A stretch of DNA of 62,868 bases, the filler included, from Collodictyon triciliatum (taxonomy: Eukaryota): assembly GCA_043381765.1 (NCBI GenBank). It is 51 parts of 51 records of this genome, joined end to end, with 100 filler letters (N's around TTAATTAATTAA, not from the genome) between each part and the next. Parts side by side here need not be neighbours in the genome. Positions count along the whole stretch, not along the records: positions 1 to 1,139 come from JBHJMP010012140.1; 50 more parts are not named here. The stretch is one strand, 5' to 3'. The first letter of the stretch is position 1. Each line of letters starts with the position of its first letter. Shown piece after piece: positions 1 to 47,630 of the stretch. The position numbers were made by a program, and so were the translations under genes. The notes beneath the pieces are model-generated. The model was not told the origin of the DNA. It worked only from the letters and a program-made list of their open reading frames with translations, and did no database searches.

Positions 1-1062
1 CACTTGGCATAACTTTACCATTGACTGTAAGACGGGCTTGTGAAAGTCCCTCAATTGCATGCATTCTATCCGTGCCTAAAAATCTTAAAGATCCTTGTTC
101 GGTGTTTCGTGTAAAAATACAATAAATTGCATTAATATTTGAATACTGAACCGAAATATTCTGATTAACCCAACCATTTTGTCCTCTGTTAATTGGAAAT
201 TGGGTAATAAAATATGTATCTATGGGAATCTGCAAATTGTTATTTATCAAATGTTGTGAAAAGCATGGTTATATGACGGTTCCGTTTGAATATAATTAAT
301 ATTCATGTGAATGTTTGAAAGTGTATAACTTAATGTAGTTGCAGTAGAAGCTTCAAAATTTGTGTGGTTGTATGACTTTGTAGTAGTATTTGTTAACAAA
401 CCGTGAGTAAAATATTCACTAGCTGGTGACATCCAAATACGAATTTCCAACGAATTGGGACCCAGTAGATAAGCTGGAAGCAATGTTTTAATATTCATCA
501 AACCCAGGTATCGAAGTGTAAATCCAATTTTAACAATATTACTATTAGTTCCAGACGCTCCAACTAAAAATAATCGTGATTTTTATAGGATAGATTGCCC
601 TATACCCATTCCACCACTCATAAGATTCACCCAATTCTGATTATTACACCAATTGTGCTTAAAAGTCTCAAGATATGAATAGTTGTCTATTCGTTCGAGC
701 TCACTTCCATTGAGATAAACAGTGATGCGATACACAAAAGACTCGTAACTTTCACAAGGAGCTAGAATTGGCAAAGCGACTACCCCGTTTGTATTAATAC
801 TTGTAAGTTTCAAATTGTTATAATTCGCTGCATTAGCATCAAGGATTTTTACCTGTAAATCAGCCACAATATGGGCGCTATCCATATGTATACTCCATTC
901 ATTATCTATTGGAACTCTAAAAACAATTTGAGGACCAGATGAAAATTTTGCTGTCTGCTCCGTTCCATTTGAGGGCAGTACTTGTCTCATTTGTTTTTCC
1001 AAAATGGTTTTCTTTTTTGACGATACATATCTAAACTGTAGCTCCTCCGGTAGTGAATCCAT
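1..1062 (-). pseudogene. Polinton-like virus double-jelly-roll major capsid protein, N-terminal part (3' partial), disrupted
   Basis: Starts MDSLPEELQF..VLPSNG..IVFRVP and contains ESFVYRITVYLNGSELERIDNYSYL. After an in-frame TAA (583-585) the same frame continues KSRLFLVG..KTLLPAYLLGPNSLEIRIWM..YTLSNIHMNINYIQ. After a 1-nt frameshift near 255-265 it continues QHLINNNLQIPIDTYF..NISVQYSNINAIYCIFTRNTEQGSLRFLGTDRMH..ARLTVNGKVMP to the contig end. No introns. Confidence 0.82.
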
Positions 1063-1139
1063 ATTCTAAAAAAGAAAATAATTTTCTAACTAGTAACCAA
1101 TTTTATTTCTGATATTGTCGTCGTATGATTTTTAACTTT

Positions 1140-9910: not shown

Positions 9911-11047
9911 ACTAATTTTAATATTGGTTTAAATACTTCTAATAATACAAATATGAAAACAGTTAATGTAAATGGTCCTAGTAATTTTAATGCTTATACT
10001 CCCAATTATTCATTAATATTAACGCCTACTTTATCGTGCACATTTGATCCTACGGGCACAGCTTCTATATTATTCGGTATTGCGTGTAATACTAATAATG
10101 GAGTTTATGTTATAGCTAGTAATACTTCAACAGCAGGACATCAGCGATTATTTGTTTCAGAACCTAATAATTTAACTACATGGACGGCTATAACTAATAC
10201 TACTATAGCTTTAGATAATATACGAAATATTGTTTTTGGTAATAATATTTGGGCGTGTCTTTCACAGTCAACAGCAACGCGTACATTATATTATACTACT
10301 GATATTACAGCAAAGACTGGATGGACGCAAGTTGTAAATTCAGCGCCTTGGACAACATCGCGATCATTACAGCGTTTAAAATTTATCAATGGACAATTTA
10401 TAACTATTGATACGGGTTCAAGATATCGAGTTTCAACAGATTGTGTGGTTTGGTCTTTCGAAATTTCGATGACGACGACCGCTTATTCAATGGCCGATAT
10501 AACATATTCTCCCGAATTAAGAAGATATGTTGCGGTGACTAATAATGCTATTTTATATTATGATGGTACAACTTTACCAACAACAGGAAGTAATCTATTT
10601 ACTCAAGTTATAACAACTTCAAATTTAGCAGCGGTTGAGTGGTCTTCAAAATTGGGCATATTTACTACTAATCCATTAACAGCGAATGGATCATTTTTAA
10701 TATCAAAAGATGGTATAAATTGGACAAGTCCGGGAACTTTACCATGGATAAATAGAACTATAACATGGGTTAATGATTTTGGCGGGTTTTTTATGGCTTC
10801 ACCTCAACAAGCCACGAATAATCTTGCAATTAGCAGAGATGGTATAAATTGGCAAACTATAGCATTATCATTCACAGCTTTTGGAGCTTCAAATTATTAT
10901 AATTCTGTTACTAAAATGTTTGTATTTTCAGGTACTGATATAGCACATTATCGAGATGTCAACACTTTATTTTCTTCTTATGTTGATACTGATTTAATTT
11001 ATAATACTTTTAATTCTAATGTTAGATTTGACGATATTATTGAATAC
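9911..11047 (+). CDS. Viral-type fibre / beta-propeller protein with Asp-box-like repeats (partial at both ends)
   Basis: Frame open across the whole contig (TNFNIGLNTSNNTN precedes the ATG at 9953). No introns, A/T-ending codons, Thr/Asn/Ser-rich. Repeats VSTDCVVWS, ISKDGINWT, ISRDGINWQ and blade motifs ITYSPELRRYVAV, VEWSSKLGIF, ITWVNDFGGFF. Confidence 0.7.
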
Positions 11048-22287: not shown

Positions 22288-23371
22288 TTTTATTTCCAAT
22301 TTCTTTTTTAATCTCGTCTGCCATTTTTTGCAATGTTTCCTCCCCTTCGGGGCTTTCTATTGCCTTGTCAAATTGTGCAAAATACGCATTTAGCTGATCC
22401 ATTGTTGTATCCAATTTTCCCTTTACTCGTTCTACTTCTTCTGTTTCTACTTCTTCTGTTTCTGCTTCTTCTCTTTCTACTGTTTCTGCGTCTTCTATAA
22501 CTTCTATTCCTTCATCTTCATCTTCATTACCAACATATTGTTGTAAAGATGCCTTTGAACCCCCAGCTTTACCTAGAGCTTCGGCTGGCTGATCTAAAGG
22601 GTCGTCCTCGGCATCTGTTGATTCTATTACTTTTTGTCTTCTATTGTATTGTCTTTTTGGAATTTCTTTAATAAACTGCGTTATGTCTACGTCTTTAGCT
22701 ATCGTGATTTCATTTAATTTTAATGCCATAAATGCATTTAAAGTATTATCCCTAAGAAATTTCATGTTACCTGGTGCATTAGGTCTTTCTTCCATTCTTT
22801 CAAAATTTAATTGATCAAAATTTAAACTAGGCGAGTTAGTTTGCTTTTTGATATTTATGATGTCTAAAAAAACAGTCCTGAGCTTAGGAAAATCAAGCTC
22901 TCTAATATATTCAAAAAACTCATTTTTGGTTTTTTTTTTTGCAATTGTTTCAACATCAGGTGCTGGTGGAGTATTCACAGGTGTATAAAACGGCATTAAA
23001 TATTTGTAACCATAGAGCTCTTTTGTTAAATCATCCAAAGTATTTTCTTCTATTGGCATTTTTTCACCAAAGCCCTGTTCATATAATTTCTCTAATTTTA
23101 TAAAATCGTCATATTCATAGTTTGACCCTCTGTCTCTTCTTTGTTGATAATACAACTCTACAAAATCTTTCGCAGCTTTCTGTAAATCTTCAGCACTAAC
23201 TTTCGCTGGTAGAGTATGGGACAATATATAATTGAACTTTGCACCAGGTAAACTATTTGTATCATCTTCAAAATTTATTTTTAGGTTTTCTCTCTTAGGC
23301 CATTCTTTAAACCAATTGATAGTTTTTCTTTGTTTTGATAAAGTATCAAGAGTTCTGTATTCTCTGCTCAT
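22288..23371 (-). CDS. Intronless orphan ORF with acidic C-terminal region, likely viral (3' partial)
   Basis: More than 360 open codons with A/T-biased third positions and no microsatellites or introns. The ATG follows an AT-only leader similar to those of the capsid-region genes. Confidence 0.6.
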
Positions 23372-23543
23372 AATATAACTTATATAAAATTTCTTGGCTA
23401 ATGTATGATTGTTGATGTTAGANNNNNNNNNNNNNNNNNNNNNNNNNNNNNNNNNNNNNNNNNNNNTTAATTAATTAANNNNNNNNNNNNNNNNNNNNNN
23501 NNNNNNNNNNNNNNNNNNNNNNCCCACATTTCTTTTTCATTAC

Positions 23544-23690
23544 CTACACAATTAAATTTTTTTGACTTTGAAACTCGACGGTGCCTCCGCAGCACGAACT
23601 CTTTTTTAAATGATCAACTGTGTACTTGAACAATCTTTCAATAACTAACACGCAAGTCATAAGTAATGAAATTATTGTAACCGGTTCCAT
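23544..23690 (-). CDS. Small (48 aa) membrane protein with basic-dicysteine motif; below the ORF-track cutoff
   Basis: MEPVTIISLLMTCVLVIERLFKYTVDHLKKSSCCGGTVEFQSQKNLIV*. ATG 15 nt after the capsid stop. The next ATG (23540, MKKKC..) is 3 nt after its TAG. Confidence 0.75.
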   Translation of the reverse strand: MEPVTIISLLMTCVLVIERLFKYTVDHLKKSSCCGGTVEFQSQKNLIV

Positions 23691-23705
23691 TACTTAGTAA
23701 ATATT

Positions 23706-24656
23706 TTATTCTACACGGAAAGTCTGCTGGTTGCTTTGAATCTCCAGCACAGCGTCGTACAGAGATGCAACTATAACATTATAATTTACGCCTGTGGGAA
23801 TAACGCTATTAAACTCTAAACGCAAACTCATCAATCCGCTGCCAGAACTCTGAATGTCTGACCCTACTATCTCTCCCTCGACTGCATCGAGTACCTTGCG
23901 TAGATTGAACCCAAGCATAAACTCACAATTGGGTCCACATGCAGTTTCGCGCATGTATCGAATACCATCATTACCAACTGTACCTAAATGTGCCCCAGCT
24001 CCGGCGGTAATTGCAGGATTTAATAAAGCATTTGCATTACTAGCGTTAACAGACACTACTCTGCTAAAATCTGATAAAAACACAGCACCTTTTGCGGAGT
24101 TATTAGCGTTATTAGCATATGGAACAAAAGTATAATTACCAAGTTGTCTTTCTTGATTCCATCCAACAGCAGCATCTCCTGCTGCATTAAGATCAGCTAC
24201 TGGAGTTATTCCGCCAGTTTGTAGACCTAATTGGGTTGCAGCTTGATCTGCGCCTGGTGCACTAATAGAACCTTCAAGTCTTTGATTTAGTGGAACTGCA
24301 GGATTTGACCCAGGCCAGAATTGTCGGCCGTCATATGCAAATGGTCCTGTATATTCTGAGCGAACAAAGGTAAGACCCAGAGCCTTCTGTAATTCTAGGA
24401 AAACCTGAGGAGCTGATTCCTCGCAATCCATCGGCTGCAGGGGGTAGTACATCGAACCAAGTTGTAGCTGTGCCGTTTTCAAATTCAGGGGAAGATGCTT
24501 TCTGTCCTTGCCAGCAACATTTAGCTTCCCTTGTTCTTCCGTGCGGAAAAATGCAACAAATACCGCGTTCAAACTTTTGACTGTGTCATTTATATTGTAC
24601 ACAATGCTGGGAGTATTTTGGGGTAATGAATACAAACTTGTTCTCCAAGTCTTATA
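23706..24656 (-). CDS. Polinton-like virus double-jelly-roll major capsid protein, C-terminal jelly roll (5' partial, intact)
   Basis: Open from the contig end: YKTWRTSLYSLP..NINDTVKSLNAVFVAFFR..AQLQLGSMYYPLQPM..QVFLELQKALG..FMLGFNLRK..GSDI..LRLEF..YDAVLEI. This is the motif order I recall for PLV capsid proteins (SL..IF; QFQIG..YP..P; ELQKA.G; F.IG..L; YD..L.I). Confidence 0.85.
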   Translation of the reverse strand, partial: YKTWRTSLYSLPQNTPSIVYNINDTVKSLNAVFVAFFRTEEQGKLNVAGKDRKHLPLNLKTAQLQLGSMYYPLQPMDCEESAPQVFLELQKALGLTFVRSEYTGPFAYDGRQFWPGSNPAVPLNQRLEGSISAPGADQAATQLGLQTGGITPVADLNAAGDAAVGWNQERQLGNYTFVPYANNANNSAKGAVFLSDFSRVVSVNASNANALLNPAITAGAGAHLGTVGNDGIRYMRETACGPNCEFMLGFNLRKVLDAVEGEIVGSDIQSSGSGLMSLRLEFNSVIPTGVNYNVIVASLYDAVLEIQSNQQTFRVE

Positions 24657-27600
24657 GNNNNNNNNNNNNNNNNNNNNNNNNNNNNNNNNNNNNNNNNNNN
24701 NTTAATTAATTAANNNNNNNNNNNNNNNNNNNNNNNNNNNNNNNNNNNNNNNNNNNNTTTTTATCTTTTTTTATCTTTTTTTATCTTTTTTTATCTTTTT
24801 TTATCTTTTTTTATCTTTTTTATCTTTTTTATCTTTTTTATCTTTTTTATCTTTTTTATCTTTTTTATCTTTTTTATCTTTAGTTTGTTTTTACTAACTT
24901 CACCCATGTGATTAATCGAATCAAAAGGTCCCAGATGATTCCCATACCCTCCCACCAAAAAAGACGTGCCTTCAATATCGTTTCCATCTGCTTAAGGTTA
25001 TTTGACAAGCTTTCATTCACACTTCAGTTTGTGAATTGAGAATCCCAAAAAAAAAAAAAAAACAGATAATGGTTGTGATATATCATAAAAATAGGCTAAG
25101 CGAAAATTTATGCAGTCGTCTTTTTATTTTTATAAAATATATATGGTTACTTAGGCCATCCCCCAGTCACAATTTGAACGTGCAGAAGACTATGAAGTAA
25201 GCTGTCTCCCTAAGCTTCGAGAATATACATGACATGAGATGGCATATATTGGGTTAAAATAATTATATTTGCTTGACATTAGTAATGATTCCTCATTTAT
25301 TACCAAGGACTGGCTCGAAAGACAGACGAGAATATTTGAGATTGGATTAATCTCTCATATAATGGAAACAGACGTGGATATATGGGTTATGGATTCAGAG
25401 CAGGTCAATTGAACTTCGAGTGTATATGTGAATTGTGTTGAAAAAGGCCGTATTATTTATTACCGCTTGGTCTACATCTTGTTAAGAATAATAACAATCA
25501 ATAACGCAGAGCACGAAACAAGACGTTGTAGAAATGGTCAAATATGCCGCCCAAGCCATCGTTGAATGTGGCCCTCTATATTTTCATACCTTGGTTTTCG
25601 TTCCCAAATATACATTATTACTGTATTTGCCTAGATGGCTATTTAAGCTCTTAGAAGTGTCGAAGCACCCTCACTGACCACATTAAAAAAAACCTAGCAA
25701 AAAAACTCCCGGTTAAACAAATCGAAGAGCGCATAACGGCCTTGGATTCGATTCTAAAGAATATTGTACAGGTAATTCTCCAACATTACCATCTATCTCT
25801 CTATCTCTCTATCTCTCTATCTCTCTATCTCTCTATCTCTCTATCTCTCTATCTCTCTATCTCTCTATCTCTCTATCTCTCTATCTCTCTANNNNNNNNN
25901 NNNNNNNNNNNNNNNNNNNNNNNNNNNNNNNNNNNTTAATTAATTAANNNNNNNNNNNNNNNNNNNNNNNNNNNNNNNNNNNNNNNNNNNNATACATACA
26001 TACATACATACATACATACATACATACATACATACATACATACATACATACATACATACATACATACATACATACATACATACATACATACATACATACA
26101 TACATACATAATGGATATCATAATGGATACTTTTTGCATTTAGTATTAATGCTACAATCATGTCTCTAGTTAAATAGTGGGCAATCGTCATCAAGGAATC
26201 AGAGCTGGAAGCCGGTAGCTCGTGGTCAGGATGGAATATCCCTGGTAAATACATATTTCATAAATGCACACAAACAGCCCTGAAGTAGGCATACAGTTTC
26301 CCCCCGCCGGTTGGAATGCACAAAACCCATGTAGACTAATTCCATTGATGAAAATAAACAACAGGATGGAACACCATCTGTTTCCCCTCCTGGATTTTCA
26401 AATGCAAACAAGCTCTCTACTTATAATAAATTCCACAAACCAGCCAAAAAAGATGGTCATTATTCTGATTATAATTGTCACTTTTTCTATTCCTATTCTT
26501 CTGATAATTTCGATTTATTGTGTAATTCAAAGTTGATTTAATGACCAGCATTTCTTAGGTCTTGCTGCTTCAGATTTCGGTAGCGTTACAGGTGGATTAC
26601 TTTTCTTCTAATAAAAGATATAAAAATGTGTCAATAATGTTAGACACGTTTGTGTCTTTTAGTACTTGTTTATGTTAAAATACATAATTTCTTTTATATT
26701 CTTTAACCACATCATTCCTTCGATTCAGGAAGCGGCTTCTCACACATGCACGACCACCTGAACAGTCGCCACGCCGCCATTTCTCCCTCTGGCTATGGTA
26801 TAACTAATGTTTTGCACCATTCTCTACCACACAAGTATTTGGATGTGTATCCAATCTTACAAGAATGCCTGATCGAACAAATCCCTATCATTTCAATATC
26901 CTGGCTTTGAATAATGTTTACATACATTGTGAATTAGACCCTTTTTTTTTTTCTGCCCTTAAAAACCAAAAATGAAAACCTACTCGCAGACCATCCTATC
27001 GAATCGCCAGTTGGTTCTCCATCTGTCGCGATGAAATGTGCGATATCGACAAAATTTTGTTTCCAATTTACTATTGTCCTTTATTATAGTTTTGATTCTT
27101 TGAATCGAATAAAGGGGGGGGGGGGNNNNNNNNNNNNNNNNNNNNNNNNNNNNNNNNNNNNNNNNNNNNTTAATTAATTAANNNNNNNNNNNNNNNNNNN
27201 NNNNNNNNNNNNNNNNNNNNNNNNNAAAATTAAGATGTGAAAAAATATAAAATAAAAAAAAAAAAAAAAGACAGCGTTGCCTATTATTTTAATTATTACC
27301 TCAGAAATGACTATTACAAATATGAAAAGAACCTACCCACACGTTGAACAACCGACATGAACGAGATATTTTTTTAGATATTGGCAAGACAAACTGAGGG
27401 CCACTTATCTTGGTTTCCTCCAGTATTGAACAAGACCTATGTAATTTGCATACTTGCTCGTGGTTGCATTTTTATTTTGGTACGCATGTCAATCATGTTG
27501 CTCATAGTCAAGGGAGATGGCCAATAGGGCCCAGGATGTAAAATACACATTTAATATTAACCTATTATCTTTATTCTGAGCTGACAGTTGTGAATGTTTC

Positions 27601-39587: not shown

Positions 39588-40718
39588 TTCTTGTAATTCG
39601 TGTGTTATTTCTTGGGCTGCTTTATGCACTATTTCTTTTGTTGATGCACCTGCTTTCTCATCTGTGGTTTCTTTCGTAAGTCCCTCGTCTATTTCTACTT
39701 GCTCAGAATCCTTACCAAGGGCTCTCTTTCCAAAAGGATAGGAATCAGGTTGGGTAAGAAGGTTGTCATTTTCTGAATTTTTTCTAGAGCCTTCGTCCTT
39801 TTTACAGTTCTCACAAACAATAGGGCTCGTTGCTTCAAAATGACTGCTTGGCTTACCATGAAGCTCATAATTTTCTCCTTCCATCTCATCTTGACTCATT
39901 GTTTGTGTGTGTTGCTCTGATGTAGTAATCATCGGCTCAACTTCCTGACCATCATCATCGACACCGTTTTCATCTCCGATTTCAATATCGTTCTGGCTAT
40001 TTGGATTCCTTTCTCCCTTCATACATCCGATGACTGAGTCATATTGTTTTGAATGCTCAAACTTATCACCCATTCCTTCACCATCAGTATTTTGTATCTC
40101 GTGGCCCTCGTTTTCCTCATCGGTTTCATACGAATCACTGGCGTCACGGGAGTCATCATTCGTGATTTCCTCACTATCCTCCTGATCAAAGGTATTTTCA
40201 TCGGAATCGTCTCCGTCATGTAACCTATTTTCTGCTTCATCACTGGATACTTTGTTGTCATTACTTCCTGCTCTCTCTGCGCGTTTTATAGTACTGTTTG
40301 CAATTAAATCGATGTTATGACTATCTCTTTCTTCGAATTCATCGCATCCATGTGAACCTGTGTTTTGGTTTTCCATACTTTGATGACGCATGTTTACTTT
40401 CGACATTTCATTCCCATTCTCTTGTTGTTCATTTGTGTCTACTCCATTGACGCTCTCCGTCTTTCTGGCCTCAGCTTTCTTGGGTAATTCAACAAGCTTG
40501 CGAGATTGCGGTGCTGTGTTGAGGCCAGCAGGCTTGGGCCCATCAGGCTTTGAAGGTTTCATACCCAACCTCGGATTCTTCGGCTCTTGGATGGTGAATT
40601 GTGATACGTTCTGACTCTGACTCTCGCTTTTATTCCCTCTGCGTATTCTTGATATCCTCGGAGATGCCCCGACTGATGCCGCCTTTTCATATGTAACATG
40701 CGGGCGGTCATATCTTGC
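39588..40718 (-). CDS. Acidic, low-complexity disordered protein segment (partial at both ends)
   Basis: Frame open across the whole contig (about 377 codons), rich in E/D/N/S. Confidence 0.7.
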
Positions 40719-46981: not shown

Positions 46982-47630
46982 GGAGCTATGGATAGGCACA
47001 CGCGCGGCAAAAGCTGGCAAAGTCTCCCAACAATGCACACTTTGCAGCAACGGTGATGAATCCATTGAGCACACATTTGTGCAATGTCCCTTCGCTCAAA
47101 ACCTGCGCGAAACAGCCGGTGAGATTCTTCGGCTGACACTCAAGACGGCTGCAGCTGTTGGCCCAATCCAGGCGATATTTGGGCCTCTGCAACAGCTGCG
47201 TCCAGATGCAAAAACATTTCTGGGCAGTGACGCGAGGCCATTTGCTATGGACTATGTCGATAGCGCGCATATACTCACGCAAAGCAAGATTCAACAGCCA
47301 GACACCCATTCCTGATAACAGGCTGAATGACATCATACAAATCTCTTTCCTCAACAGCTTTCATCGCCACCTGCATGTCCTCTACTACCCCGACCCCGTG
47401 AGAAGAGACATGTGGAAAGAAGCTGATAAATATATTAAACCTCGTCTTGTATCTCCTCATGGAAGCACAAGACCCAGGTTACAGGCCAAACCGCAGGATG
47501 CAATTCCTACTTACCGACTACTTCTCCGCCAACCGGCCACCAAATAGCGTCCATGCCAAAGAAGGCTGGCACCTTGGAGACAGGAACTTCATCTCCGCAC
47601 GCAAAGAAAAACAAACAAAATAAAAATAGC
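46982..47630 (+). mobile_element. L1/Tx1-like non-LTR retrotransposon, 3' end (C-terminal CCHC zinc-binding region, frameshifted, A-rich tail)
   Basis: ELWIGTRA..QCTLCSNGDESIEHTFVQCPFAQ, then after a frameshift FWAVTRGHLLWTMSIAR..SFLNSF..RRDMW. A-rich tract near 47600-47630. Confidence 0.8.

Follow-up and report, generated by a model that had tools for sequence, protein, structure and literature searches.

The question raised by this locus is whether a viral capsid gene interrupted twice within about a kilobase is the relic of a virus integrated into the genome of Collodictyon triciliatum, or a piece of a virus that was sequenced together with that organism. The gene lies on contig JBHJMP010012140.1 of assembly GCA_043381765.1, which fills positions 1-1139 of the window, that is, of the whole stretch of 62,868 bases analysed here. 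An earlier reading made from this DNA alone (the sequence-only reading) had called it the double jelly-roll capsid gene of a Polinton-like virus (PLV) and had taken its two lesions as the mark of an integrated, decaying endogenous virus. The capsid call is upheld by phmmer homologs, by the predicted fold of an intact relative and by the gene neighbourhood of related loci, and on this evidence its identity as a major capsid gene of the PLV kind, with a double jelly-roll product, is very nearly certain. Whereas the identity of the gene can be read from these results, where the contig came from and whether its breaks are real are matters that we infer, and we give a probability of roughly 0.6 to the view that the contig is a low-coverage passenger and not an old, decaying chromosomal insert of the sequenced organism.

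A capsid gene in three segments

The window is an artificial join of 51 unlinked contigs, each of 1128-1153 bp and ordered almost perfectly by decreasing size, which are separated by 50 linkers of 100 nt with the form N44-TTAATTAATTAA-N44 (the first at 1140-1239, the next at 2379-2478); because the window is a concatenation, any feature that seems to cross a linker is an artefact. The capsid contig, the first in the series and followed by four others that are also 1139 nt long, is a whole, stand-alone, unplaced contig with a GC content of 0.337. It is viral from base 2 to base 1134, after which comes the artificial linker, and the DNA to the right of the linker at 1140 has no physical link to it.

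The part of the capsid gene within the contig amounts to 1062 nt, or 354 codons, read on the minus strand and without sign of introns. Segment A (586-1062, minus strand) comprises codons 1-159 from an ATG at 1060-1062, and is 82% identical to the capsid protein of a related metagenome locus, L002, and 67% identical to the database relative P0003. It is followed by an in-frame TAA at 583-585 (minus strand), the first lesion, at a column where 13 of 13 aligned intact relatives have a sense codon; this stop is a base substitution and not a homopolymer-length error, and it lies far from the contig ends. Segment B (250-582, minus strand) continues in the same frame until a stop at 247-249, with homology ceasing at about 262-264, and shows 56% identity to a second database relative, P0002, and 70% to L002. 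Segment C (2-268, minus strand) consists of 89 codons in a shifted frame that opens past a stop at 269-271, begins with the residues QHLINNNLQIPIDTYF, ends with VNGKVMPS where the contig truncates it, and is 81% identical to the capsids of loci L005 and L006. Since the second frame is open from 268 to 2 and the first frame as far as 250, the one-base frame change, the second lesion, must lie within the overlap of the two open frames at 250-268 (minus strand). Compared with this zone, each of five relatives aligned at the DNA level has one extra base, as does a 6884-nt contig from a river metagenome (X2).

In the alignment the three segments are collinear with the 13 intact relatives and the joints between them are ungapped. 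The contig holds approximately the first 60% of the gene; as the frame ends at base 1 because the contig ends there and not the gene, the roughly 250 C-terminal codons that lie beyond the contig end are simply absent. With the TAA, the single-base frame change and the last 40% off the contig, the gene as written cannot yield a full protein. Most of this had been anticipated: a single frame split by the TAA at 583-585 into entries at 583-1062 and 247-501, a 1-nt shift near 255-265, and a joined, intronless product of about 350 aa all reappear in the present analysis, and the order of motifs ascribed to PLV capsids is the order found in the family consensus. The third segment was likewise correctly seen as an open frame running to base 1, although what it meets there is the edge of the contig and not the end of the gene.

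Relatives and predicted fold of the capsid protein

For the search of 1.84 billion representative proteins with phmmer, segments A and B were joined with an X at the stop and segment C was used separately. The A+B query found 16 relatives at E<=0.001, the best being P0003 (605 aa, E 1.7e-95, 67% identity) and most of the others having 540-580 aa and 35-43% identity, and segment C matched P0002 at E 1e-49 with 68 of 88 residues identical. A scan of metagenome contigs with P0003 yielded nine loci with relatives (L001-L009), six of which carry complete or near-complete capsid genes of 578-605 codons whose products are 60-93% identical to P0003. Aligned over 343-347 columns, the window pieces share 77.7% identity with L002, about 74% with L003-L006 and 67% with L001 and P0003. 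Apart from the breaks the sequence looks well preserved: 39 of the 41 columns invariant in 13 relatives are retained, with one of the two misses falling at the frame overlap; among columns invariant in seven near relatives 185 of 204 are retained, and 5 of the 19 misses are overlap columns that were counted twice.

Profile and structure-database searches by sequence gave little. The window pieces matched no Pfam family (0 found), had a single PHROGs match at 0.058, and returned chance-level matches alone among PDB sequences (E 0.094 and 1.6), while the family profile found none (0) of the PDB sequences. Across 14 family members, one showed a weak Pfam match to Capsid_N (E 0.0088). A tblastn search of a phage collection with P0003 produced no match, and the IMG/VR viral contigs contained nothing for P0003 or P0019.

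The fold was computed from P0003, an intact relative with 67% identity to the window pieces, and not from the broken product of the window. The AlphaFold2 model, built from a 14-sequence alignment, has a predicted template modelling score (pTM) of 0.76 and a mean predicted local distance difference test score (pLDDT) of 68.6, with the low-confidence parts in loops. Its structural matches place it among the double jelly-roll major capsid proteins (PRD1-adenovirus lineage), which are defined by two consecutive eight-stranded barrels in one chain. Against BFVD it gave 94 matches at E<=0.001 (best 1.1e-19), drawn from the capsids of giant viruses, virophages, adintoviruses, mavirus and Tetraselmis viridis virus S1 (the last at E 7e-10), and a Foldseek search of PDB gave 233 chains at E<=0.001. 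Pairwise comparison of P0003 residues 14-605 with VIA-align placed the capsid chain 8h2i_bz of PBCV-1 (Paramecium bursaria chlorella virus 1) at the top, with a Z score of 19.3 (root-mean-square deviation 3.3, 361 residues aligned), followed by faustovirus (18.3), Singapore grouper iridovirus (SGIV, 17.5), Sputnik (3j26, 15.8), mavirus (6g45, 14.7), and PRD1 P3 and adenovirus hexon (about 12); the full range of Z scores, from 19.3 to 11.9, also takes in p72 of African swine fever virus, vaccinia D13, and the capsid proteins of Sulfolobus turreted icosahedral virus (STIV) and PM2 (P2). The look-alikes of the capsid in the ESM Atlas are capsid clusters. AlphaFold and Foldseek had been named by the sequence-only reading as a check on its capsid call, and in the relative P0003 that check returned double jelly-roll matches.

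Gene neighbourhood and assignment to the Polinton-like viruses

The relatives' loci lie on short contigs of 2.6-5.2 kb, none longer, and share a gene order that runs from a divergent helicase-domain gene through an ATPase, a small protein, the capsid, a lysine/glutamate-rich protein and a 291-aa protein to a fibre-like protein. In L006 the product of the divergent gene exceeds 736 aa and contains a DUF5906/VapE-like helicase domain (Pfam E 6e-16), and the packaging ATPase, of 240 aa, matches Pox_A32 above the Pfam cut-off (E 3e-13). The small protein, encoded between the ATPase and capsid genes, has 136-144 aa; past the capsid gene the lysine/glutamate-rich protein is encoded on the opposite strand, and the fibre-like protein is encoded past the 291-aa gene. 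A model of the 291-aa protein, which is present in L003, L004 and L005 and for which six relatives were gathered, reached a pLDDT of 70.0 and a pTM of 0.56 and gave 48 BFVD matches at E<=0.001, including the mavirus minor capsid protein (E 3.5e-10), proteins of Tetraselmis viridis virus S1 and adomavirus LO5, as well as presumed minor capsid or penton proteins from giant viruses and from virophages; the model is that of a penton-like jelly roll. In an intact virus of this type the capsid protein folds into two jelly-roll barrels, trimerises and, together with the penton protein, tiles an icosahedral shell, and an A32-type ATPase packs the viral DNA.

Capsid, minor capsid (penton) and packaging ATPase are the trio given as the core of all PLVs by Bellas and Sommaruga (2021, PMC7805220). 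All three are present in the relatives' loci, and the window contig is too short to carry the ATPase and penton genes. Where PMC11161782 deals with replication genes, PLVs are described as having neither protein-primed DNA polymerase B (pPolB) nor an RVE integrase but another replication protein, such as an AEP-S3H or PolA-S3H fusion; judged by its domain match, the DUF5906/VapE-like protein of L006 would fit an S3H-type replication protein. A Ulp1 protease, pPolB or integrase was not seen among the open reading frames of the nine incomplete loci (<=5.2 kb), and such genes could lie elsewhere in the genome. For the virophages (Maveriviricetes) the distinguishing traits are a Ulp1-type cysteine protease within the morphogenetic module and a replication that depends on a giant virus.

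A close parallel in kind is offered by the PLVs that PMC7805220 describes from freshwater metagenomes, which resemble the present lineage in that the relatives' loci, themselves from water metagenomes, combine capsid, minor capsid and packaging ATPase; the capsid genes of each group are termed ‘highly diverged’ in that description, just as the present capsid has no Pfam match. The difference is that the window has 60% of a capsid gene, and in broken form. The cultured PLV Tetraselmis viridis virus S1 and the virophages mavirus and Sputnik share the double jelly-roll fold, but identity in the structural alignments is just 8-12%, and the protease, pPolB and integrase are unseen in the short loci studied here. 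Capsid proteins of the Nucleocytoviricota, of the PBCV-1 Vp54 kind, provide the best structural matches (the PBCV-1, faustovirus and SGIV chains listed above), yet the present family has no match to the Pfam Capsid_NCLDV model above threshold, and its loci show the tight packing of a small virus within 2.6-5.2 kb. Endogenous PLVs and virophages of protists, as presented in PMC10120064, are viruses of the same kind, and among such integrated elements defective copies would be expected; the present contig differs in showing no host junction, terminal repeat or integrase.

The fold comparison raises the alternative that the gene belongs to a virophage or to a small relative of the giant viruses and not to a PLV. 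Its nearest named fold matches are indeed giant-virus capsids, virophage capsids score high as well, the one weak Capsid_N match within the family points the same way, and the loci are too short for a protease gene elsewhere in the genome to be excluded. Against this stand the compact module, in which ATPase, small protein, capsid, penton-like protein and S3H-type helicase occur within at most 5.2 kb with no protease seen, and the lack of any sequence-level match to the virophage capsid families of Pfam; such an origin is improbable.

Origin of the contig and reality of the breaks

Every one of the 20 sequencing runs found to contain part of the contig (20/20) carries a metagenome label, in most cases that of fresh water, a river or a lake; none of the listed runs contains as much as half of the contig's sequence words, and there is no RNA run among them. 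From the four best-matching runs (X1-X4), contigs were aligned to contig 1-1139, the parts left uncovered in X1, X3 and X4 being uninformative. The 6884-nt contig of the river metagenome X2, assembled at a depth of 34.6, covers positions 1-1085 with 118 differences (89% identity), and its sole gap is one extra base within 250-268, from which it follows that this relative has an unbroken frame at the site of the shift. Third codon positions hold 24 of the 40 listed differences from this contig (binomial p 5e-4), and 13 of the 19 listed differences downstream of the frame shift; this bias implies that all three segments were under coding constraint for most of the 11% divergence. Two further pieces show no differences at all: a 236-nt contig of X1 is identical to 302-537, and 101 nt of a 151-nt contig of X2 are identical to 1031-1131.

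A second PLV-type capsid fragment, of another lineage, is located at 23706-24656 (minus strand) on contig 23523-24657. Its 316 codons are fully open from the contig end, where the gene is cut off, to a stop at 23706-23708, and identity of the product to two intact proteins, of 593 and 597 aa, is 76% and 70%, respectively. The two capsid lineages match when compared with hhalign (probability 100, E 1.4e-39, 22% identity). The GC content of this contig is 0.416 versus 0.337 for the capsid contig, and it is the sole other contig of the window with similarity to the capsid contig or to the relatives' loci.

The presence of this second, different capsid fragment on another short contig favours a passenger origin. 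In such a scenario the source would be a PLV circulating in fresh water, which may have arrived as free particles or inside a protist that accompanied the sequenced organism, and the breaks would be either very young or sequencing and assembly errors, with the odds between these two roughly even. The proposal that the lesions betray an integrated, decaying endogenous virus is not supported: no host flank is present, 39 of 41 invariant columns and a conserved motif upstream of the gene are kept, differences are concentrated on third codon positions (24/40 listed), and identical pieces of 236 and 101 nt occur in freshwater metagenomes. Nevertheless, several observations weigh against a passenger origin. 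For a consensus sequence, two disabling single-base lesions within 1062 nt and a stop in the frame of the upstream gene, 6-8 nt short of the contig end, make a high count, which fits a truly defective copy. The TAA is a substitution and not a homopolymer-length error, and errors are not evidently rife in the assembly, since the second capsid fragment is clean over 316 codons. The window pieces depart from near-relative-invariant columns about 14 times, versus nine times in L002, the only unpaired relative, and two of the departures (L to F, and the P of FPLRYLG) are at very conserved positions; this excess could reflect relaxed constraint. The identical metagenome pieces total 337 nt, cover neither lesion site, and might stem from the host itself, as an inhabitant of those waters. 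Finally, repeated integrated elements also fragment assemblies into short contigs.

The rival reading, in line with the sequence-only one, is that a PLV sits integrated in the nuclear genome of the sequenced organism, where the contig, a part of it, decays as a pseudogene. The stop at 583-585, the one-base frame change at 250-268, the additional stop at 1132-1134 in the frame of the upstream gene and the two substitutions at highly conserved columns are what decay would leave behind, the short contig is what a repeat would produce on assembly, and endogenous PLVs are described as common in protist genomes in PMC10120064 and PMC7805220. An endogenous viral element is defined by a physical link between viral and host chromosomal DNA (junction, terminal repeats, target-site duplication); with virus sequence at either end and an artificial linker as its border, the contig offers no host junction from which integration could be read. 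Neither conservation nor the third-position bias nor the upstream motif has been lost, and by our estimate three lesions would imply neutral divergence at the percent level, against zero differences over the 337 nt. The other contigs, moreover, look like those of a complex eukaryote, and the cultured PLVs that PMC11161782 names infect marine algae. On balance an old, decaying insert is unlikely. Closer to an even chance, though somewhat short of it, is the possibility that the gene is intact in nature, whether the virus is free or integrated, and that both the stop and the frame change were introduced by the sequencing or assembly of a low-coverage contig. The contig belongs to the bin of the smallest unplaced contigs, the frame change falls within a short single-base run, the extra anomaly in the upstream gene falls in the final 8 bases, where reads are of the lowest quality, and the remaining sequence is conserved, with the closest environmental relative unbroken at the shift site; opposed to this are the nature of the stop, a substitution away from the contig ends, and the 316 clean codons on a viral contig of the same size. 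A comparison of lesion density among contigs was discarded as circular, as the contig-spanning frames had been chosen for their openness.

Variant nuclear codes exist in some freshwater protists, and a TAA read as an amino acid by this virus or its host would leave the frame change as the sole lesion, which would agree with the one TAA present in frame, at a position occupied by a sense codon in the relatives. Under such a code, however, the TAA would stand alone in 354 codons of an AT-rich gene, and all relatives are open under the standard code. The idea was rejected as untenable because TAA ends 16 of the 17 genes in the relatives' loci, and it is barely credible. A passenger origin may also be set against a more dramatic variant, in which a PLV lineage circulating nearly unchanged in fresh water was newly inserted in the germline of the sequenced complex eukaryote, or in an obligate symbiont, with decay just begun; we regard this as very improbable.

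The upstream gene end and a conserved 12-base motif

Upstream of the capsid ATG, a spacer of 27 nt (1063-1089, minus strand) contains the 12-mer AAATTATTTTCT at 1073-1084. Beyond it lies the 3' end of an upstream gene (1090-1134, minus strand), with 13 codons at 1093-1131 that end ...NKIGY before a stop at 1090-1092; in the relatives this gene encodes the small protein of 136-144 aa. The additional in-frame stop at 1132-1134 is among the last 8 bases of the contig and was given little weight.

The 12-mer is exact in the window and occurs as a single copy in each of eight of the nine relatives' loci, the eight being those that include the capsid start. The exact matches are at 183-194 in L001, 559-570 in L002, 420-431 in L003, 383-394 in L004, 108-119 in L005, 3653-3664 in L006, 885-896 in L008 and 837-848 in L009, and in the window and all eight loci the motif is always about 10-25 nt upstream of the capsid ATG. 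With one mismatch allowed the motif is not rare in the window (4 found versus 3.5 expected), and the exact copy at the homologous position was the only one counted. It is a putative promoter element of the capsid gene, to be treated as a candidate.

The position of the small upstream protein is occupied in L008 (80-877) by a 266-aa SAM-dependent methyltransferase (Methyltransf_23, E 1.7e-15). As the C-terminus of this methyltransferase ends ...NKIGY, like that of the small protein, a fusion or replacement is suggested in that locus.

Other contigs of the window

The remaining contigs resemble the genome of a complex eukaryote, with long microsatellites, fragments of leucine-rich repeats, a zf-RVT domain and exon-sized pieces of genes such as those for importin-11, a P-type ATPase and argininosuccinate synthase. 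The zf-RVT domain, the zinc-binding part of a reverse transcriptase, lies at 46983-47312 on the plus strand with an E value of 4.8e-7, above the Pfam cut-off, and is a fragment of a host retroelement. A complete contig of 1130 bp at 53135-54264 is composed of imperfect short tandem repeats with several frames open; it suggests reads of about 1 kb or longer, and such a read length would influence which errors the assembly is likely to contain. On the minus strand of 39588-40718 a frame of 377 codons spans the whole contig and encodes an acidic, low-complexity protein that has no Pfam match and is probably a host exon or a disordered protein. Scans of the window for Rfam families and tRNA genes found none.

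Two AT-rich contigs, at 9911-11047 (plus strand, GC 0.317) and 22289-23422 (minus strand, GC 0.322), have frames of 379 and 378 codons, respectively, that are open from end to end. Neither product has a Pfam match, and no similarity to the PLV loci was found. The product of 9911-11047 contains repeated ...DGINW... motifs, and the Atlas clusters nearest to it, with a weak score of 0.85, consist of viral propeller-like proteins. Both contigs may be further viral passengers.

Significance

Fragments of PLV capsid genes are to be expected in draft assemblies of eukaryotes and open no new question in themselves, PLVs being known both as abundant viruses of fresh water (PMC7805220) and as inserts in protist genomes (PMC10120064). 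For users of this assembly it is relevant that at least two different PLVs are represented by DNA in its bin of unplaced contigs, which may be contamination or viral inserts. Should the recent insertion considered above be true, a PLV would have become endogenous only lately, and in a host other than the protists known to carry such inserts; the conserved 12-base motif would then be a candidate promoter of the virus, perhaps still able to answer to a helper giant virus. For the capsid family itself the finding adds a member to a group that no Pfam model covers and that has 16 representatives at E<=0.001 among 1.84 billion proteins; the points of mild interest are thus a capsid lineage with no Pfam model and few database relatives, and a conserved upstream motif that marks the capsid gene throughout the lineage.

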